16,598 nt of DNA, taken from IMG/VR virus record IMGVR_UViG_2554235127_000006, one strand, 5' to 3'. Below, one piece after another: positions 2,917 through 16,598 of the stretch. Under the pieces are notes generated by a model that was given only the letters and a program-made list of their open reading frames with translations, ran no database searches and had not been told where the DNA came from. Position 1 is the stretch's first letter; every line of letters starts with the position of its first letter. A program made the translations under genes and the position numbers. Source of the DNA: a virus (Duplodnaviria; Heunggongvirae; Uroviricota; Caudoviricetes).

Positions 2917-3935
2917 AACGACGTACCTGTCGTGGAGGAGGGAAGTAATTTATCGACAGCTGCAATGACATCTGCCGCCGGAATAACCGAAAGATACATC
3001 TCATTTCGGTCACGCTGATCGCGCGTTGGCATTTCCCGGTAATCTCCCGCCCAGAATTGAATCATGTTATTTGACCAGGGACGCCAGAAAATATGGTCTG
3101 TCGCACCAAACAGCGATATCAGCGGCGTATTAACTGCAGCGGCAATATGCGCCGGTGCGGAATCAACGCCAATAAACAGCTGCGCATGATCGATTAACGC
3201 ACCAAGTTCCGGGAAGGTCACCTTTCCGGCCAGCGCCGTTACTGGTGGCGTCTGGCATCCCTGCGCAATTTCATTGACGCAGGCCAGATCGTCTTTATCT
3301 GGGCCGGACGTCAGAACGACTTCATAACCACGAGCATGTAAGGCATCAATCACAGCGGAAAACTTGGCGTTGTCCCAGCATTTGAAGATTTGCCGCGCCG
3401 TAGGTTGGATAACCACATAATTTTGTCCAACACCAGCGTGATCAAGTTCGCGACGCATACGTTTCCAGCTTGCAGGCGGGTAACTCATGGTTGTCTGCTT
3501 CACCAACGATTCAAGTCCCAATGGCGTCAGCACGGATAAGTTACTTTCCACCACATTTCCACCCTGCAACGGCACCAAATGAGTGAAACTATTACGCCAA
3601 AAAGCAGACTGCCGATGATGATAATCCTGGGAAATTTTCACACGGGCATTTAATAAACGAACCAGTATAGCAATCATCCATTGATCGGTAAGATTAACGA
3701 TAAGGTCATACTTATTGGCACGTAATACCTTGATGAGATGAAAAAAGTTGGCAATTTTTTCTGAGGCTTTTGCTTTTTTATTTTTTATGCCGTAGAGCGC
3801 GTTAATCTCTGGATTTTCAGACAGGATCGGGATGGTGTCCTGATAAAGCAGCACATCGATTTTTGCGTCAGGGTAATTTTTTTTCAGCGAACTAATGACG
3901 GGAGTAGTTAATAACATATCCCCATGAAAACGCAT
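2913..3935 (-). CDS. waaQ: LPS heptosyltransferase III WaaQ
   Basis: Track ORF 2913..3971. The recognised WaaQ sequence begins MRFHGDMLLTTPVISSLKKNYPDA, which is the 13th codon of the track ORF, so the start is placed at 3935. First gene of the minus-strand waa core operon. Confidence 0.88.
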   Translation of the reverse strand: MRFHGDMLLTTPVISSLKKNYPDAKIDVLLYQDTIPILSENPEINALYGIKNKKAKASEKIANFFHLIKVLRANKYDLIVNLTDQWMIAILVRLLNARVKISQDYHHRQSAFWRNSFTHLVPLQGGNVVESNLSVLTPLGLESLVKQTTMSYPPASWKRMRRELDHAGVGQNYVVIQPTARQIFKCWDNAKFSAVIDALHARGYEVVLTSGPDKDDLACVNEIAQGCQTPPVTALAGKVTFPELGALIDHAQLFIGVDSAPAHIAAAVNTPLISLFGATDHIFWRPWSNNMIQFWAGDYREMPTRDQRDRNEMYLSVIPAADVIAAVDKLLPSSTTGTSL

Positions 3936-4383: not shown

Positions 4384-6148
<1,765 letters not shown>

Positions 6149-7734: not shown

Positions 7735-8403
7735 TTAAATCCAGCCGCGTTCGGCAAAAGAAACATACTCTCCACGCCCAATCACGATATGGTCGAGCAC
7801 GCGTAAATCCATGAACTGACAACTCTTTATTATCCGTTCAGTAATGAGTTTATCCGCTTTACTGGGTTCAGCACAACCCGAAGGGTGATTATGCGCAAGG
7901 ATCAGCGCCGAGGCGTTTATTTTTATCGCTTCGCGGATAATTTCCCGAGGATGGACTTCAACATGGTTTAGCGTGCCGGAAAAAAGACGGCTATGCGTTA
8001 TAACTCTGTGTTGGGAGTCGAGAAAGATCACCATAAAGATCTCCCGCTCCTCGCCCGTGAGCTGGCTTTGTAAAAATTCCCTCGTCATCTCCGGGCTGAG
8101 TAAAGGGCTTTCTTCACGCATCCGTACGTTGTAGTAACGCCGCGCCAGTTCGGCAATCCCCTTTAACTGGGCGAATTTCGCCACGCCAATTCCATGAACG
8201 CCACTAAATTGCTCATATTCAGAGGTTAACAAGCCATAAAGAGAGCCGAAATTCTCCAGCATCTCTTTTGCCAGGGTTAATACATCTTTACCGCGCGTTC
8301 CGGTACGCAGAAATAGCGCCAACAGCTCGACATCCGTTAAGGCGCTAATACCAAACTTCAGCATTTTTTCGCGCGGCATCAACAGCTGTGCATTGTTTTT
8401 CAC
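7735..8403 (-). CDS. yicR: UPF0758 / RadC-like JAB-domain protein YicR
   Basis: Track ORF 7735..8409 starts at a GTG that abuts the Shine-Dalgarno AGGAGG. The second GTG (8401-8403) has 5-nt spacing and gives [15 protein letters not shown]..., a 222-aa product. Contains HNHPSG (JAMM-like motif). Confidence 0.85.
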
Positions 8404-8574
8404 CTTCACCTCCTTTGTGGTGCTCGCATCCTGTCATAGCCGTTCCTTTAAATCGACGGCCAGTTTTCAATCCTGGAAAGCGCCTCGCAAAGTGAATCTC
8501 AGGTGAAGGCACGACAACAAAAGTATTGTGATAAAATCGCCAACTTCTGGTGTCACCCAACAGGAAAAATCATC

Positions 8575-9795
8575 ATGAGCCTGGCCGGTAAAAAAATCGT
8601 TCTCGGCGTTAGCGGCGGTATTGCTGCCTATAAAACCCCTGAACTGGTGCGTCGTTTGCGCGATCGCGGGGCCGATGTCCGCGTAGCCATGACCGAAGCG
8701 GCAAAAGCCTTTATCACCCCACTTAGCTTGCAGGCGGTTTCTGGTTATCCCGTTTCCGACAGTCTGCTGGACCCGGCAGCCGAAGCCGCTATGGGCCATA
8801 TTGAGCTGGGAAAATGGGCTGATTTAGTGATTCTCGCCCCTGCCACGGCAGATTTAATTGCCCGTGTTGCAGCCGGAATGGCGAATGACCTGGTATCGAC
8901 GATTTGTCTGGCTACACCTGCGCCTGTAGCCGTGCTCCCCGCCATGAACCAGCAGATGTACCGTGCCGCCGCCACCCAGCATAATTTAGAGGTGCTTGCC
9001 TCGCGTGGTTTGCTCATCTGGGGGCCAGACAGCGGCAGTCAGGCTTGTGGTGATATCGGCCCAGGGCGAATGCTCGATCCGTTAACCATTGTGGATATGG
9101 CGGTAGCGCATTTTTCGCCCGTCAACGACCTGAAACATCTGAACATTATGATTACCGCCGGTCCGACGCGTGAACCGCTCGATCCCGTGCGTTATATCTC
9201 TAATCACAGCTCCGGCAAGATGGGTTTTGCTATCGCCGCCGCCGCAGCCCGTCGTGGTGCGAACGTCACGCTGGTATCAGGTCCGGTTTCATTACCGACG
9301 CCACCGTTTGTTAACCGTGTTGATGTGATGACCGCGCTGGAAATGGAAGCCGCCGTGAATGCTTCAGTACAGCAGCAAAATATTTTTATCGGTTGCGCCG
9401 CCGTGGCGGATTATCGCGCAGCTACCGTGGCCCCAGAAAAAATCAAAAAGCAGGCCACGCAGGGTGATGAATTAACAATAAAAATGGTTAAAAACCCCGA
9501 TATCGTCGCAGGCGTTGCCGCACTAAAAGACCATCGACCCTACGTCGTTGGATTTGCCGCCGAAACAAATAATGTGGAAGAATACGCCCGGCAAAAACGT
9601 ATCCGTAAAAACCTTGATCTGATCTGCGCGAACGATGTTTCCCAGCCAACTCAAGGATTTAACAGCGACAACAACGCATTACACCTTTTCTGGCAGGACG
9701 GAGATAAAGTCTTACCGCTTGAGCGCAAAGAGCTCCTTGGCCAATTATTACTCGACGAGATCGTGACCCGTTATGATGAAAAAAATCGACGTTAA
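8575..9795 (+). CDS. coaBC: Bifunctional phosphopantothenoylcysteine decarboxylase / phosphopantothenate-cysteine ligase CoaBC (Dfp)
   Basis: [28 protein letters not shown]... (flavoprotein N-terminus); 406 aa from the ATG at 8575. The track ORF carries a 24-codon upstream extension. Confidence 0.93.
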
Positions 9796-10231
9796 GATTC
9801 TGGACCCGCGCGTTGGGAAGGAATTTCCGCTCCCGACTTATGCCACCTCTGGCTCTGCCGGACTTGACCTGCGTGCCTGTCTCGACGACGCCGTAGAACT
9901 GGCTCCGGGTGACACTACGCTGGTTCCGACCGGGCTGGCGATTCATATTGCCGATCCTTCACTGGCGGCAATGATGCTGCCGCGCTCCGGATTGGGACAT
10001 AAGCACGGTATCGTGCTTGGTAACCTGGTAGGATTGATCGATTCTGACTATCAGGGCCAGTTGATGATTTCCGTGTGGAACCGTGGTCAGGACAACTTCA
10101 CCATTCAACCTGGCGAACGCATCGCCCAGATGATTTTTGTTCCGGTAGTACAGGCTGAATTTAATCTGGTGGAAGATTTCGACGCCACCGACCGCGGTGA
10201 AGGCGGCTTTGGTCACTCTGGTCGTCAGTAA
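9773..10231 (+). CDS. dut: dUTP diphosphatase (dUTPase)
   Basis: [35 protein letters not shown]...; start overlaps the coaBC 3' end by 23 nt. The start could alternatively be the second ATG at 9776. Confidence 0.92.
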
Positions 10232-10337: not shown

Positions 10338-10934
10338 ATGGCAGAAAAACAAACTGCGAAAAGGAACCGTCGCGAGGAAATACTTCAGTCTCTGGCGCTG
10401 ATGCTGGAATCCAGCGATGGAAGCCAACGTATCACGACGGCAAAACTGGCCGCCTCTGTCGGCGTTTCCGAAGCGGCACTGTATCGCCACTTCCCCAGTA
10501 AGACCCGCATGTTCGATAGCCTGATTGAGTTTATCGAAGATAGCCTGATTACTCGCATCAATCTGATTCTGAAAGATGAGAAGGACACCACAGCGCGCCT
10601 GCGTCTGATTGTGTTGCTGCTTCTCGGTTTTGGTGAGCGTAATCCTGGCCTGACCCGCATCCTCACTGGTCATGCACTAATGTTTGAACAGGATCGCCTG
10701 CAAGGGCGCATCAACCAGCTATTCGAGCGTATTGAAGCGCAGTTGCGTCAGGTATTGCGTGAAAAGAGAATGCGTGAGGGCGAAGGCTACGCGACGGATG
10801 AAACCCTGCTGGCAAGCCAGATCCTGGCCTTCTGTGAAGGTATGCTGTCACGCTTTGTCCGCAGCGAGTTTAAATACCGCCCGACGGATGACTTTGACGC
10901 CCGCTGGCCGCTAATTGCTGCACAGTTGCAGTAA
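10338..10934 (+). CDS. slmA: Nucleoid occlusion factor SlmA (TetR family)
   Basis: [55 protein letters not shown]... (TetR-type HTH); 198 aa from the ATG at 10338. Confidence 0.92.
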
Positions 10935-10939
10935 TATGA

Positions 10940-10972
10940 CGCCGGATGACTTTTCATCCGGCGAGTTTCTTT
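10940..10972 (+). terminator. Intrinsic terminator after slmA (10-bp stem CGCCGGATGA / TCATCCGGCG, loop CTTT, then a T-rich tail)
   Basis: Perfect inverted repeat read from the sequence, followed by AGTTTCTTT. It overlaps the 3' end of convergent pyrE. Confidence 0.65.
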
Positions 10973-11612
10973 AAACGCCGAACTCTTCGCGATAGGCCTT
11001 AACCGCCGCCAGATGTTCCGCCATTTCTGGCTTCTCTTCCAGATAGGCAATCAGATCTTTCAAGGTGATGATAGAGATCACTTTGCAGTTGTAATCACGC
11101 TCAACTTCCTGAATTGCCGAAATCTCGCCGCGCCCCCGTTCCTGACGATCGAGCGAAATCAATACGCCAGCAAGCGTCGCGCCATTGGCCTGAATAATTT
11201 CCATCGACTCGCGAATCGCCGTTCCGGCGGTGATCACATCATCCACCAGCATTATGCGTCCTTGTAACGCGCTACCGACCAGATTGCCGCCTTCACCGTG
11301 GTCTTTTGCTTCTTTGCGGTTAAAGCAGTACGGCAGGTCCAGGTCATGATGCTCCGCCAGCGCCACGGCAGTTGTGGTGGCAATCGGGATCCCTTTGTAA
11401 GCAGGGCCAAACAGCAGATCGAACTCAATGCCGGAATCCACCAATGCTTCAGCGTAAAAACGGCCTAACAGTGCCAGATCGCGCCCGGTATTAAACAGCC
11501 CGGCGTTGAAGAAATAGGGGCTTTTGCGCCCGGATTTCAGCGTGAACTCGCCAAACTTTAACACCTGCTTGCTAAGCGCAAATTCAATAAACTGGCGCTG
11601 ATATGGTTTCAT
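10971..11612 (-). CDS. pyrE: Orotate phosphoribosyltransferase
   Basis: [43 protein letters not shown]...; PRPP-binding [10 protein letters not shown] motif; 213 aa from the ATG at 11610-11612. Confidence 0.93.
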
Positions 11613-12520: not shown

Positions 12521-13384
12521 ATGATCCGCAGTATGACCGCCTACGCCCGGCGTGAAATCAAGGGTGAATGGGGGAGCGCAACCTGGGAAATGCGCTCGGT
12601 AAACCAGCGTTATCTGGAAACTTACTTTCGTCTGCCGGAGCAGTTCCGTAGCCTTGAACCTGTCGTTCGCGAGCGTATTCGTTCTCGCCTGACGCGCGGT
12701 AAAGTGGAATGTACCCTGCGCTATGAGCCAGATGTTAGCGCGCAAGGTGAGCTGATCCTCAACGAAAAACTGGCTAAACAGCTGGTAACTGCCGCGAACT
12801 GGGTAAAAATGCAGAGCGACGAAGGAGAAATCAACCCGGTTGATATTCTACGCTGGCCGGGCGTGATGGCAGCCCAGGAGCAAGATCTCGACGCGATTGC
12901 AGCTGAAATTCTCGCGGCGTTGGATGGCACCCTGGATGACTTTATCATCGCGCGCGAAACCGAAGGTCAGGCGCTGAAAGTGTTGATTGAGCAGCGTCTG
13001 GAAGGCGTCACCGCCGAAGTGGTCAAAGTCCGCGCCCATATGCCGGAAATCCTGCAATGGCAGCGTGAGCGTCTGGTAGCGAAGCTGGAAGATGCTCAGG
13101 TGCAACTGGAAAACAACCGTCTGGAGCAGGAGTTGGTTCTGCTGGCACAACGAATTGACGTTGCCGAAGAACTGGACCGCCTCGAAGCGCATGTCAAAGA
13201 GACCTACAACATTCTGAAGAAAAAAGAAGCGGTTGGCCGTCGTCTGGACTTTATGATGCAGGAGTTCAACCGCGAGTCGAACACTCTTGCTTCGAAATCT
13301 ATCAATGCCGAAGTGACGAATTCTGCCATCGAGCTGAAAGTGTTGATTGAGCAGATGCGCGAGCAGATCCAGAATATCGAGTAA
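12521..13384 (+). CDS. yicC: YicC-family protein (YicC/YloC endoribonuclease family)
   Basis: 287-aa ORF MIRSMTAYARREIKGEWGSATWEMRSVNQRYLETYFRLPEQFR..., recognised as YicC. Divergent from rph. Confidence 0.93.
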   Translation: MIRSMTAYARREIKGEWGSATWEMRSVNQRYLETYFRLPEQFRSLEPVVRERIRSRLTRGKVECTLRYEPDVSAQGELILNEKLAKQLVTAANWVKMQSDEGEINPVDILRWPGVMAAQEQDLDAIAAEILAALDGTLDDFIIARETEGQALKVLIEQRLEGVTAEVVKVRAHMPEILQWQRERLVAKLEDAQVQLENNRLEQELVLLAQRIDVAEELDRLEAHVKETYNILKKKEAVGRRLDFMMQEFNRESNTLASKSINAEVTNSAIELKVLIEQMREQIQNIE

Positions 13385-13424
13385 GCTATAAGCAACATTT
13401 AGGACGACGCATAAATCACACCAA

Positions 13425-13448
13425 GCCCGCAACCCAGCGGGCTTTTTT
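13425..13448 (+). terminator. Intrinsic terminator of yicC (GCCCGC-AACCCA-GCGGGC followed by TTTTTT)
   Basis: 6-bp GC stem and 6 T read directly, 41 nt after the yicC stop. Confidence 0.75.
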
Positions 13449-13492
13449 GTTATCATGGGCTATCATAAAGACGCAACAAAGCGCATGATTAT

Positions 13493-13546
13493 GGTGTACA
13501 CAAAGGTGTACCCAATGAGGTTTGGGTACATTGCTTTGGGTACACC
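13493..13546. repeat. Cluster of four GGTGTAC-type motifs upstream of int, including an exact 9-bp inverted pair
   Basis: GGTGTACAC (13493-13501), GGTGTACCC (13505-13513), GGGTACA (13523-13529), GGGTACACC (13538-13546). The second and fourth are exact reverse complements, 24 bp apart. Candidate arm-type integrase or regulator binding sites. Confidence 0.5.
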
Positions 13547-13574
13547 CCCTATTCAAAGTTTGGATATTCGCAAA

Positions 13575-14834
13575 ATGCCAAAACTAACAGACATGCAGAT
13601 CCGCGCATGGATTAAGAGCGGAGAGCGATTCGAGGGGCGGGCAGACGGTAACGGTTTATACCTACGTTACCGTGAAGCCGACAAAACCCCCACATGGAGA
13701 TTCCGCTATAAACTCGCAGGGAAGTCCCGCGCCATGCTAATTGGTTCGTATAGCGAGCTATCACTATCAAAGGCCAGAGAGACAGCCAAAGAGCTATCGG
13801 CTCGCGTTGCGCTGGGCTATGACGTTGCAGGAGAGAAGCAGAAGCGCAAAACCGAAGCACTGGCGAAGATGGAAGCAGAGAAGAACGCTATGCGCGTTTC
13901 AGAGCTTGCCGCTGAATACTTTGAGCGTCAGATACTTCCGAGATGGAAACATCCCGATATCCTTCGCCGGAGAATTGATAAGGATATTAACCCCTGCATT
14001 GGGCATATGAAGGTAGAGGACGTTAAGCCACGCCACATTGACGACATGTTGAAAGGTATCGTTGACCGAGGAGCACCAACGATAGCAACAGATGTATTAC
14101 GCTGGACACGCCGTATCTTTGACTACGGGATAAAACGCCACGCTCTGGAGATAAACCCTTGTTCAGCGTTTGAAGTATCTGATGCTGGTGGTAAAGAGGT
14201 TTCCCGCGACCGTTGGCTAACTCGCGATGAGCTTATCAGGCTATTCGAGGCTATGCGCACCGCAAAAGGATTCAGCCGCCAGAACGAACTGACATTTAAG
14301 CTATTGCTGGCACTATGCGTTCGTAAGATGGAGTTATGCGCCGCACGATGGGAAGAGTTTGATTTAGATGGTGCGGTATGGCATTTGCCGGAAGAACGCA
14401 GCAAAAACGGAGACCCTATTGATATACCTCTACCTTCTCCAGCCGTTGAATGGTTGAGAGAACTACACACCTTTTCATGTAATAGCGCATGGGTGCTTCC
14501 AGCCAGGAAGATGCAAAACAGAATGATCCCACATATTCAGGAAAGCACTTTGCCCGTAGCACTGGCTAAGGTTCGCGCCGAAATGCCGGATGTGCCTAAT
14601 TTCACGATTCACGACTTCCGACGCACCGCACGTACTCATTTAGCAGCGTTGGGTGTTGATCCTGTCGTGGCGGAACGATGCCTCAATCATCGCATTAAGG
14701 GCGTAGAGGGGATTTATAACCGCCATCAGTATTTTGATGAGCGTAAAGCAGCACTGGCACAGTGGGCTGATCTGCTGGTGGCACTGGAAAGCGGAAAAGA
14801 CTACAACGTAACGCCTCTCAGAAGGGCGAACTAA
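13575..14834 (+). CDS. Site-specific tyrosine recombinase, P4-type integrase family
   Basis: N-terminus MPKLTDMQIRAWIKSGERFEGRADGNGLYLRYREADKTPTWRFRYKLAGK is typical of the P4-type arm-binding domain. C-terminus has HDFRRTARTH (HxxR) and GIYNRHQY (catalytic Tyr). Track ORF starts at 13455, but the first 40 codons overlap the terminator T-run and repeat cluster, so I place the start at the ATG at 13575. Confidence 0.88.
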   Translation: MPKLTDMQIRAWIKSGERFEGRADGNGLYLRYREADKTPTWRFRYKLAGKSRAMLIGSYSELSLSKARETAKELSARVALGYDVAGEKQKRKTEALAKMEAEKNAMRVSELAAEYFERQILPRWKHPDILRRRIDKDINPCIGHMKVEDVKPRHIDDMLKGIVDRGAPTIATDVLRWTRRIFDYGIKRHALEINPCSAFEVSDAGGKEVSRDRWLTRDELIRLFEAMRTAKGFSRQNELTFKLLLALCVRKMELCAARWEEFDLDGAVWHLPEERSKNGDPIDIPLPSPAVEWLRELHTFSCNSAWVLPARKMQNRMIPHIQESTLPVALAKVRAEMPDVPNFTIHDFRRTARTHLAALGVDPVVAERCLNHRIKGVEGIYNRHQYFDERKAALAQWADLLVALESGKDYNVTPLRRAN

Positions 14835-14842
14835 CTGAATAG

Positions 14843-14905
14843 ATTGAGCCTAGCCCGACGGGGCGAAAAGCGGAAAGCCTTACCGCCTGGCTCAATTCTT
14901 TTTAA
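14843..14905 (+). terminator. Long-range inverted repeat (ATTGAGCC ... GGCTCAAT) followed by TCTTTTT after int; possible terminator or insulator before the cargo gene
   Basis: 8-bp arms at 14843-14850 and 14889-14896 with a 38-nt interior that has its own short GC palindromes, then a T-rich run at 14897-14903. The structure is unusual, so confidence is low. Confidence 0.35.
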
Positions 14906-14928
14906 GGCAAAGCGTAGAAGGTGACGCA

Positions 14929-15810
14929 ATGAGTAAGTTATTTAAGCTCAAAGAATGGCTGACGTTATCGGAAGCCTCAGAGAGGCTATCAGTATTCTTA
15001 GGTGAAAAGGTTTCTGTTGCTGATTGTTTGCAGCTGGCATTGGATAAGCACATAACCATTTCAGCAATTTTTAACGAGAGCCAGCACGCTATCCATGCGA
15101 AGGTAATCACAACGACCCAACGTAAGCAGTTTTCTAAATTCATTATCCGGACAACAGAGGATGGGGCCTATATTGGCCTTATAGGGGAAGATCGCTTTGT
15201 CTCAAACAGTGAATTAGATTTTGAGTATGAAGATATTGAAAGGTACGGTGATGTTTTCACGTTGCGTCATGGGATCTATGACCTGCCTATGCTGGGGGCC
15301 GAAGAATTGGATGTCATGCATCAGCTTGATTTGAACGCTGGAAGAGCGCCTCGGGAATTCTGCAATATGGAGGGGCCATTTTTGATAACTCCATATGGCT
15401 TGGTGAATATCTTAAACCAGTTCAATCCTTGGATGTTAAAGACGAATGATAGCGGCTCACCAGAGTATTACGATAAGGTAAAAAACGAGTTCGTAGATTT
15501 GAGCCATGAAGGCTACCGCGGGTTTCTTTATCCGGCCGATGCTTTGGGCGATTTTGAGCTTGTATTCAGAAGAGAAAACATCGAAAAGTTTGAGCAAGAA
15601 AATTCTGGTGATGGCCAACAATCGCTAAAACTTGATGAGAGCCTGCATGTAATAGGTGCTCTGCTTAACGCCTTAAAAAAAGCTGAACCAGCATCTAAGC
15701 GATGGACGCAAGAGGCGCTAAAGGCGGAGATGATAGATCACGGGGTTAACCTAAGCCCTCGACATCTCGATAAATATTTCTCGGCAGCGAATAAATCTTT
15801 TAAATCATAG
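14929..15810 (+). CDS. Hypothetical protein (293 aa), island cargo; function unknown
   Basis: Uninterrupted 293-codon ORF, MSKLFKLKEWLTLSEASERLSVFLGEKVSVADCLQ...; GAGG-containing purine-rich stretch upstream of the ATG. It looks more AT-rich than the flanking core genes by eye. I recognise no motif; acidic central region; no obvious hydrophobic transmembrane stretch. Confidence 0.7.
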   Translation: MSKLFKLKEWLTLSEASERLSVFLGEKVSVADCLQLALDKHITISAIFNESQHAIHAKVITTTQRKQFSKFIIRTTEDGAYIGLIGEDRFVSNSELDFEYEDIERYGDVFTLRHGIYDLPMLGAEELDVMHQLDLNAGRAPREFCNMEGPFLITPYGLVNILNQFNPWMLKTNDSGSPEYYDKVKNEFVDLSHEGYRGFLYPADALGDFELVFRRENIEKFEQENSGDGQQSLKLDESLHVIGALLNALKKAEPASKRWTQEALKAEMIDHGVNLSPRHLDKYFSAANKSFKS

Positions 15811-15919
15811 AGATAATTTCGCACCGAAAACCCATTTTTCGCTGCGATGACTTAATCCCCCTCCTGAAGCATGCTTCTTGTAACGACGCAACAGCGTCTA
15901 CAAAGGAGTTACGAGAAGC

Positions 15920-16123
15920 ATGGCTACAGACAACATCCCCAACACAGGTTACATCCGCCGCTTTCGCCTGGCTGAATTGCTGGGCGTTAGTGTATCCACC
16001 ATCGACCGTAAAGTAAGAAACGGTTCACTACCACGTCCGGTAAAGCTGGGCGAGAAGATTACCGCCTTTGATGCGGTAGAGATTAACAACTGGCTGGCAG
16101 AACGTCGGGGAAAGGTGGCTTGA
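15920..16123 (+). CDS. alpA: AlpA-family phage/island transcriptional regulator (small HTH, excisionase-like)
   Basis: 67 aa: RFRLAELLGVSVSTIDRKVRNGSLPRPVKLGEKITAFDAVEINNWL fits the AlpA pattern (HTH, then G-x-FP-xP-KLG, then W-x-EI-x-WL). AAGGAG ribosome-binding site precedes the ATG. Confidence 0.85.
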   Translation: MATDNIPNTGYIRRFRLAELLGVSVSTIDRKVRNGSLPRPVKLGEKITAFDAVEINNWLAERRGKVA

Positions 16124-16554
16124 TGAAAAAGAAAAACCGCCCATTACAGGCGGCTAACTCAGATATTCGCACGTCTGATATTACGCCGACCACCAGCCCG
16201 GTACAAGTACCTAGGCGTACCCCAAAGAAACACCGCGCCCGCGTCTATATGCTGCGTACTGGTATAGAGGGATGGACAGAAAATGACATTCTTCGCTACT
16301 GCCGTCTGTCTTCTGGTCGTAACTATGCAACAGAGTTAGAACGCCAGCTTGGAATCACTCTGGAGCGTATCGACGAAAAGAATCCTGATGGTATCGGAAC
16401 ACACCTTCGCTACCGTTTCTCCTGCCGTGGTGATGTTCTGAAAGTGATCACTCATGTTAACCATCTTGCGAACATAAATGATCACAACGGACTTTCTCAG
16501 CAGGAAATTGCCGACATTCTGAAACTCTACCCGGACGCGTTTAACGCCGCCTAA
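16120..16554 (+). CDS. Hypothetical protein (144 aa) translationally coupled to alpA; function unknown
   Basis: Start ATG overlaps the alpA stop (ATGA at 16120-16123). Basic, Pro/Thr-rich N-terminus (PVQVPRRTPKKHRAR) then a predicted globular region. Not recognised. Confidence 0.6.
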   Translation: MMKKKNRPLQAANSDIRTSDITPTTSPVQVPRRTPKKHRARVYMLRTGIEGWTENDILRYCRLSSGRNYATELERQLGITLERIDEKNPDGIGTHLRYRFSCRGDVLKVITHVNHLANINDHNGLSQQEIADILKLYPDAFNAA

Positions 16555-16566
16555 CGGAGACTGAAA

Positions 16567-16598
16567 ATGAACATCGAAAAAAGCAGATTAATTTCTGA
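16567..16598 (+). CDS. 5' end of a further island gene (partial, only about 10 codons: MNIEKSRLIS...)
   Basis: ATG at 16567 preceded by GGAG at 16556-16559; same orientation as alpA and the 144-aa ORF. Too short to classify. Confidence 0.3.
   Translation, partial: MNIEKSRLIS

Follow-up and report, generated by a model that had tools for sequence, protein, structure and literature searches.

The left end of a probable phage-inducible chromosomal island integrated at the 3' end of yicC

The final 3.2 kb of a 16,598-nt stretch of DNA from a virus record (IMG/VR record IMGVR_UViG_2554235127_000006; Caudoviricetes), which as a whole is called the window here, most probably represent the left part of a phage satellite of the Gram-negative phage-inducible chromosomal island (PICI) type, integrated site specifically into the 3' end of the gene yicC. 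We place the probability of this reading at about 0.82. It is carried by direct observations of the anatomy of the window and its junction, the unoccupied alleles of the locus, the site specificity of the integrase across genera, and the gene content of complete relatives, whose size is about 13 to 20 kb.

ATTACHMENT SITE AND JUNCTION

Alignment of occupied and unoccupied loci indicates that the final 21 bp of yicC (positions 13364 to 13384) serve as the attachment site. Strand exchange probably took place at about 13371/13372, after CAGATCCA, at or beside CAGATYCA/GAA (the slash marks the exchange point). The final 13 nt of yicC (13372 to 13384), the terminator that follows, and the entire 190-nt stretch before the integrase gene would then be island DNA. 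The features of this region, in window coordinates, are as follows.

12521 to 13384, plus strand: yicC, the target gene, encoding the YicC/YloC endoribonuclease (Pfam YicC-like_N and YicC-like_C; RefSeq annotation of the syntenic gene in strain 64.1)
13364 to 13384, plus strand: attL identity block CAGATCCAGAATATCGAGTAA, the final 21 bp of yicC, stop codon included
13385 to 13574, plus strand: left arm of the island (P' arm of attP), with the terminator and repeated arm-type sites
13423 to 13450, plus strand: rho-independent terminator, island borne, now ending the yicC transcript (terminator scan)
13494 to 13545, plus strand: cluster of four GKGTACM motifs (GTGTACA, GTGTACC, GGGTACA, and GGGTACA), putative arm-type integrase sites
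13575 to 14834, plus strand: int, arm-type tyrosine integrase of P4/CP4-57-like architecture, 419 amino acids, full length (Pfam; phrog_1 integrase)

The left boundary comes from an empty allele. In strain SCU-111, yicC is followed after 251 bp by yicG. The sequence matches the window through ...ATCGAGTAAGC; from GAGTAAGCGACA on, it matches what lies beyond the right end of the complete island (12.7 kb) of strain 64.1. The SCU-111 attB thus equals attL on its left side and the attR flank of 64.1 on its right side. It is this yicC-yicG type, not K-12, that forms the empty allele matching the island of 64.1, which is 98% identical to the window. Alignment with K-12, which the original prediction had suggested as the means of defining attL, was carried out; K-12 has a different allele, with dinD behind yicC, owing to which it diverges at the stop codon and cannot alone define the junction.

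Other candidates for the core were considered and set aside. An 8-bp sequence at the stop codon, GAGTAAGC, which emerged from the first three-way alignment, is one half of the 21-bp block, with a 6-nt deletion in 64.1. A 26-nt direct repeat, GTGTACACAA(A/G)GGTGTACC..., has both of its copies 90 to 120 bp inside the ends and is conserved across genera, and because of that position and conservation, it is better taken to be arm-type sites. An artificial attB that combined the left flank of the window, this repeat, and the right flank of 64.1 matched no genome in one piece, a failure that pointed to the true empty allele.

The right boundary was examined in 15 Escherichia coli islands and in two published Gram-negative PICIs, CfCIP10159 from Citrobacter freundii and EcCIRM13514 from E. 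coli RM13514, both described by Fillol-Salom et al. in 2018 (PMC6092414) and remapped to yicC by the Williams laboratory (PMC10111431, supplementary files 5 and 6). All 17 right ends have the form ...GTGTACA.AAGGGTGTAC.-(about 55 nt)-CTCAATAAACAGATTCA, followed by the 13-nt end of yicC, whole or truncated, and then by the host flank; as variants of CTCAATAAACAGATTCA, two E. coli copies read CTCTACAAAC(A/T)GATTCA and one reads CTCAACAAACAGATTCA. Intact copies of attR, in which CAGATTCAGAAYATTGARTAA is followed by the host flank, occur in PKF11, ET479, and ETEC1721. In the other 12 of the 15 E. coli copies, the displaced yicC end is short by 2, 3, 4, 6, 8, 11, or 12 nt, and both published attR sites have lost 2 nt from the displaced fragment. 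Every one of these deletions (the 12 from E. coli and both published ones) begins directly after CAGATTCA. The right ends concerned are located at 33597 to 33612 in 64.1 (locus L001), near 29585 in locus L085, at 34532 to 34558 in L084, at 25911 to 25934 in ETEC1721 (L106), and in loci L086 to L097.

Polymorphisms in the 13-nt remnant identify which copy of the yicC end is which. They track the haplotype of the flank, not the type of island: GAATAA stands with ...GCC and GAGTAA with ...ACT in each of the 10 E. coli right ends of the K-12 type in which the position is retained. More fully, in every copy that retains the position, GAATAA pairs with CTCGTAACGCC, the combination found in K-12, and CTCGTAACACT accompanies GAGTAA. 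In PCN061, GAGTAA has been cut to an AGTAA remnant, again with ...ACT, while 64.1 and CfCIP10159 have GAGTAA and then a flank beginning with GC. The right arms of 64.1, NH-21, NT1F10, and PK6 are nearly identical, yet their remnants differ. Finally, the attL of EcCIRM13514 reads CAGATTCA-AAATGTGGAGTAA, which is island specific and unlike any host allele seen, and its attR retains the K-12-type sequence CATCGAATAA followed by CTCGTAACGCC (GAATAA-GCC). Taken together, the flank-linked polymorphisms, the differing remnants, and the EcCIRM13514 attL lead us to read the remnant as the original host end and the 13 nt at attL as supplied by the island.

Both arms hold repeats. Seven of the 10 GKGTACM matches in the window, counted on both strands, fall inside the 52 nt from 13494 to 13545, against an expectation of 3.3 for the whole window, and in every related island a doubled repeat, GTGTACACAAGGGTGTACC, lies approximately 90 bp inward of the right end. 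These GTGTAC-type repeats, which flank the core, are likely arm-type sites to which the N-terminal domain of the integrase would bind, and their layout mirrors the doubled arm motifs of other PICI attP sites (PMC10111431). The left arm is also conserved between genera, as evidenced by the consensus of 50 loci from other genera, which retains CGGGCTTTTTTGTT, TGTAC..GGTGTACC, and CTTTGGGTACA.

The island-borne terminator consists of a hairpin at 13423 to 13444, with an 8-bp stem containing 6 G-C pairs, and a T tract that runs to 13450. It is missing from both unoccupied alleles, whose sequence departs from the window at the stop codon. ARAGORN found no tRNA or tmRNA in the whole window, and an Rfam search of positions 13200 to 13700 (E of ≤1) returned nothing but sub-threshold leader-like matches on the terminator hairpin. 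One of these is to Trp_leader (25 bits, where the gathering score is 41; E of 0.007), and the second is to Leu_leader; both lie over the yicC stop codon and the terminator, within 13338 to 13450, and most likely they reflect just the hairpin and its T tract.

These results sharpen the original prediction, which had been made from the window alone. A terminator does follow yicC, with the integrase start about 125 bp farther on, as it had described (13575 is 125 nt past the T tract), and neither ARAGORN nor Rfam found at the junction the tRNA fragment that it had named as evidence against itself. Its statement that dinD follows yicC in K-12 is borne out by the K-12 sequence. It had let core synteny run up to the yicC terminator; comparison of attL, attR, and the empty site now moves the junction into yicC, at approximately 13371/13372. 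Likewise, of the two attachment regions that it had offered, the 3' end of yicC stands, and the terminator, being island DNA, falls away.

SITE SPECIFICITY OF THE INTEGRASE

The integrase has the three domains of an arm-type tyrosine integrase: an arm-binding domain (Pfam Arm-DNA-bind_3, residues 4 to 90), a SAM-like domain (Phage_int_M, 110 to 198), and a catalytic domain (Phage_integrase, 213 to 385). The catalytic residues, read by eye in the translation, are all present: the Arg in VRKMEL, HDFRR, LNH, and the Tyr in GIYNRH. Translation was taken to start at the conserved ATG at 13575, which matches the RefSeq coding sequence in 64.1; the longest open reading frame (ORF) begins at 13455.

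A survey across species, with one representative genome per species, yielded 80 genome loci, whose upstream parts were compared through alignment and whose downstream parts were sampled in two, from Azonexus and Steroidobacteraceae. Of the 56 loci whose integrase shares 41% or more identity with that of the window, 50 have a full-length, co-oriented yicC that ends 170 to 304 bp upstream of int. These 50 loci come from Enterobacterales, Aeromonadales (Aeromonas, Tolumonas, and Zobellella), Betaproteobacteria (Vogesella, Azonexus, and Propionivibrio), and Steroidobacteraceae, and the identity of YicC among them drops to 40 to 45%. Conversely, yicC lies beside none of the 17 integrases that are 34% identical or less. 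On this comparison, the integrase belongs to a yicC-specific clade. Among 50,697 deposited phage records, no integrase more than 33% identical was found.

Six loci with related integrases lie away from yicC (L029, L034, L042, L061, L062, and L064), with identities of 62 to 86% as measured over the best tblastn segment, three of them partial. In L034 (Klebsiella michiganensis) and L064 (Kosakonia oryziphila), the DNA upstream of position 3001 encodes an apparent GTPase Der, which suggests that the target has changed among members of the clade. The two loci sampled downstream, Azonexus L037 (4333 to 7247) and Steroidobacteraceae L047 (4300 to 7171), have integrases of the same clade (67% and 41% identical, respectively) and neighboring genes unlike the satellite layout: ORFs on the opposite strand, a restriction-enzyme-like protein of 531 amino acids, and no alpA beside int.

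OCCUPANCY OF THE LOCUS IN E. COLI

A survey of alleles in 5,426 complete E. coli genomes found a yicC-int junction of this kind in 497 (about 9%), the empty yicC-yicG allele in 678, and the K-12-type yicC-dinD allele in 4,192. The island occurs in both backgrounds, yicC-yicG and yicC-dinD, and the yicC region is a genuine insertion polymorphism, not a product of chance. The view of the original prediction that the element is an integrase-led mobile island, not a set of genes fixed and syntenic in related genomes, agrees with this abundance of empty alleles. Overall, the data support a mobile island with a P4-type (arm-type) integrase that attaches at the 3' end of yicC and not at a tRNA. The same prediction had implied that a site outside a tRNA gene would be odd; in fact, yicC is a published hotspot (PMC8409611 and PMC8978831), with two reference PICIs mapped there.

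Comparison of close relatives bears on mobility. The best-matching relative (locus L099, a contig located through an exact-protein search) has zero mismatches to the window over 13372 to 16598, the span in which 64.1 has 69. The host flanks of the window and L099 differ at 57 sites, clustered at approximately 9000 to 9500 and 10500 to 11500, around radC and slmA/pyrE. An identical island beside a divergent flank points to recent transfer or spread of the island or to recombination in the flank.

GENE CONTENT OF THE ISLAND AND ITS COMPLETE RELATIVES

Downstream of int, the window contains the following island genes.

14929 to 15810, plus strand: ORF of 293 amino acids in the slot between int and alpA, no family match
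15920 to 16123, plus strand: alpA, AlpA-family helix-turn-helix regulator/excisionase, 67 amino acids (Pfam Phage_AlpA and HTH_17; phrog_66 excisionase and transcriptional regulator)
16123 to 16554, plus strand: ORF of 143 amino acids, conserved backbone gene after alpA, no family match
16567 to 16598, plus strand: first 32 nt of an antA/antB antirepressor gene, at the window end (coordinate transfer from the 64.1 coding sequence at 24047 to 24880; Pfam AntA in L099)

All five visible island genes, int and alpA among them, are on the plus strand. An integrase gene at the left end, an AlpA-type regulator behind it, and a single direction of transcription are hallmarks of PICIs, and all three are found in the window. 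A further hallmark is a site that prophages do not use. The evidence for it is indirect: the deposited phage records have no integrase above 33% identity, as given above, and every occupied yicC site in the sample inspected, which was not an exhaustive survey, holds a satellite-type island.

Searches of Pfam, PHROGs, NCBIfam, and PADLOC matched neither the 293- nor the 143-amino-acid ORF. The slot between int and alpA is where satellites often hold accessory or defense genes, and its content varies here: an ORF of 298 amino acids in Enterobacter locus L004, a protein of 326 amino acids in ETEC1721, and nothing in MDR_56. The exact 143-amino-acid protein is indexed in 178 blocks of a public assembly collection, and gene order is alike in all 6 of the places shown, out of 24 contigs.

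Past the point at which the window ends, L099 continues with AntA, DUF4222, an Ash-family protein, and several small ORFs, and then with a primase of 783 amino acids (Zn_Ribbon_Prim/Toprim_3/DUF5906), 30 nt past which ACCTATACC iterons begin (16819 to 16922). Farther on are P22-like ejection genes (18704 to 20432; DUF2824, P22_gp7, and an injection translocase). The island of 64.1 (12.7 kb, 18 proteins) has a P4-family primase followed by iterons (TAGTAGGG repeats at 30249 to 30356 of L001) and a PerC gene, and it has no structural or lysis genes. The island of PKF11 is about 17 kb long. ETEC1721 carries a complete relative at yicC of about 20 kb, whose last features are an Abi-family gene, PerC, and an intact attR.

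No capsid, tail, terminase, or lysis genes are annotated in the complete relatives 64.1, PKF11, and ETEC1721. Sid, Psu, and Delta are absent as PHROG or Pfam families from the 18 proteins of 64.1 and from the Pfam lists of L099. A relaxase, mobI, mpsA, traG/traN, and sgaC are likewise annotated in none of four complete relatives, a result obtained from annotation without a dedicated search for oriT or AcaCD boxes.

The ejection-protein genes are unusual cargo for a satellite without capsid or tail genes. P22-type ejection homologs, including the injection protein, also occur in ETEC1721 (L106, 17273 to 21931) and in L084 (28203 to 31774), and in ETEC1721 and MDR_56 an Abi-family gene follows them. 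They may hint at a P22-like helper phage.

The same backbone is not confined to yicC. In MDR_56 (L105, 4482 to 21243), it is inserted at a tRNA-Thr gene downstream of proA (thrW side), behind a different integrase of 404 amino acids, and is 98.9% identical in nucleotides to L099 over 10 kb, from AntA to the ejection proteins. It follows that the integration module can be exchanged. IS1203 interrupts the injection-protein gene of MDR_56.

PROPOSED MECHANISM AND ALTERNATIVE EXPLANATIONS

We propose that the integrase recombines the core of attP, which duplicates the final 21 bp of yicC (CAGATTCAGAAYATYGARTAA), with its identical chromosomal counterpart, attP being the right end of the island joined to its left end across CAGATTCAGAATATCGAGTAA. 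After integration, 13 nt supplied by the island would complete yicC, encoding the same N-I-E-stop, and the island-borne terminator would end the transcript; the original 13 nt of yicC would be displaced to the far (attR) end. For this window, a right end of the form C.AA.AAAC.GATTCA would be expected, followed by GAAYATYGARTAA, whole or truncated, and then by the host flank. AlpA would likely serve as the excision and activation factor. The primase-helicase, with the iterons downstream of it, would replicate the excised element, and a helper phage would package it.

Several considerations weigh against the PICI reading. The window itself holds attL and four-and-a-bit genes, and the replication module, cargo, and attR are taken from relatives, one of which is identical over the visible part. 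Excision, helper induction, and packaging of this element are predictions made from sequence. This copy may be locked in place, given that attR is damaged in many relatives. The best-matching relative has P22-like ejection genes, which bends the original criterion that PICIs lack structural genes; the capture of late genes by PICIs has been published (PMC10111431). As for the junction, the sequence places the cleavage positions approximately, and in some events the strands may have been exchanged nearer the stop codon.

The damage to attR also lends itself to a different explanation, namely, that the island is a decayed, immobile remnant of a satellite that became fixed at yicC and whose integrase is inactive. 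The deletion of 2 to 12 nt beside the crossover in 12 of the 15 E. coli right ends might block clean excision, and the attR of the island in this window lies outside the view. We nonetheless consider this explanation unlikely. The integrase gene, alpA, and all of the other visible genes are intact, and the island part is 100% identical in L099 despite the 57 differences in the flank. An intact 21-bp attR persists in ET479, PKF11, and ETEC1721, and the locus is occupied in just about 9% of genomes. This copy may still be mobile.

The remaining alternatives concern the kind of element. A true P4-like satellite, dependent on a P2-type helper, would account for the arm-type integrase, AlpA, the Ash-family and Icd-like proteins, and the "P4 family" primase of the 64.1 variant. 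Nevertheless, Sid, Psu, and Delta have no family match in the 64.1 island; the variant identical to the window has a different primase (DUF5906) and virion genes of the P22 type, not the P2 type; and the unidirectional visible genes, together with PerC, resemble those of E. coli PICIs (PMC6092414). We therefore regard a P4-like satellite as very improbable. The chances are slimmer still that the island is an integrative mobilizable element, akin to MGIVflInd1 and MGIVmi1 or to the SGI1-like IEEcoMOD1, that is moved by conjugative plasmids or integrative and conjugative elements (ICEs). Such elements likewise insert into yicC at its 3' end, with int beside attL (PMC8409611), and in Azonexus and Steroidobacteraceae the islands headed by this integrase clade carry unrelated cargo. 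Against this, the window and its relatives show the layout of a PICI (int, alpA, antirepressor, Ash, primase with iterons, and PerC), and mobilization genes are annotated in no relative, with the limit on oriT and AcaCD boxes given above. Moreover, the SGI1-like elements at yicC are 23 to 26 kb long and lack a xis/alpA gene after int (PMC8409611). A PICI-type satellite, probably dependent on a helper phage, remains the reading that we favor.

IMPLICATIONS FOR attR DAMAGE, dinD, AND GENOME COMPARISON

"attR damage" has been reported for PICIs that target tRNA genes (PMC10111431). The deletions with a fixed start at yicC resemble it, here in a protein-coding target. Excision by way of the core from damaged copies would leave a YicC that is shortened (after a loss of 6 nt) or frameshifted (after a loss of 2 nt). 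Tentatively, the deletions might be made at integration, or selected soon after it, such that excision leaves an altered YicC and the island is held by an addiction-like lock; we see this as a possibility that is more doubtful than probable. If true, it would extend "attR damage" to a protein-coding target, and the published "attB drift" at yicC would be an artefact of attR damage.

The gene dinD, which encodes a Bro-N protein, follows yicC in K-12 (4761 to 5585 of locus L002). In PSS-13 and STN0717-20, the gene that closes the island, immediately inward of its right arm, is a second copy of dinD. The tandem in PSS-13 (L098) occupies 8164 to 8988 and 9339 to 10163: one copy is inside the island, directly left of the right-arm repeats, and the other is the chromosomal one, directly after attR; the two DinD proteins are 85% identical. 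Loci L096 and L097 also entered this comparison, and in 2022CK-00450 a KilA-N gene occupies the dinD slot. No attR-like remnant was found after dinD in K-12. The chromosomal dinD at this hotspot may be old satellite cargo that was left behind.

More broadly, phage satellites use the interval between yicC and yicG as a landing pad in E. coli and related species. There is also a lesson for annotation, in that island DNA can make up the 3' end of yicC together with the stop codon and the terminator. Such satellites carry PerC-type regulators and abortive-infection genes, among other cargo, from strain to strain, and recognizing them matters when strains are compared.

COMPARISON WITH KNOWN SYSTEMS

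The closest known counterparts are CfCIP10159 and EcCIRM13514, which share with the island the target gene, the side of insertion, and the position of int beside yicC. Their left arms also have GCTAT.AG, a terminator, and TTGTTATCATGGGCTATCAT...ACGCAACAAAGCGC, with an identity over about 100 nt of 75% for CfCIP10159 (the first 103 nt past the stop codon) and 65% for EcCIRM13514. The right-end motif is shared as well, reading ACTCAACAAACAGATTCA in CfCIP10159 and ACTCAATGAGCAGATTCA in EcCIRM13514. Outside the arms these two PICIs differ from the island, with which they were compared by att sequences alone. The identity blocks published for yicC, ATCGAGTAAGC and GAGCAGATTCAA, were presented in a preprint as "drift" of attB; here, they correspond to the two halves of one 21-bp block, and they do not overlap because a deletion at attR splits that block.

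Gram-negative PICIs in general comprise int, alpA, and pri-rep with an origin, oriented in one direction, over 10 to 20 kb at sites free of prophages (PMC6092414). Those of the EcCICFT073 type, the model for the group, resemble the island and its relatives in having iterons after the primase, PerC-type cargo, a size of 10 to 20 kb, and no capsid, tail, or lysis module (PMC6092414). They differ in their integrase and attachment site, and in the ejection genes that the best-matching relative of the island carries.

Elements of other kinds use the same site. These include the mobilizable elements MGIVflInd1 and MGIVmi1 and the SGI1-like IEEcoMOD1 and IESenUSA1 (PMC8409611), as well as the Shewanella islands GISpuPO1 and GISspANA3, which have 21-bp att sites at yicC (PMC8978831). 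Like the island in the window, they place a tyrosine integrase beside attL and have an att identity block of approximately 21 bp; unlike it, they carry conjugative-mobilization, restriction-modification, or toxin-antitoxin cargo and rely on plasmid or ICE helpers. The literature already covers the attachment site, this type of integrase, and the family of elements, and the island described here is a further example of a known element type at an established site.

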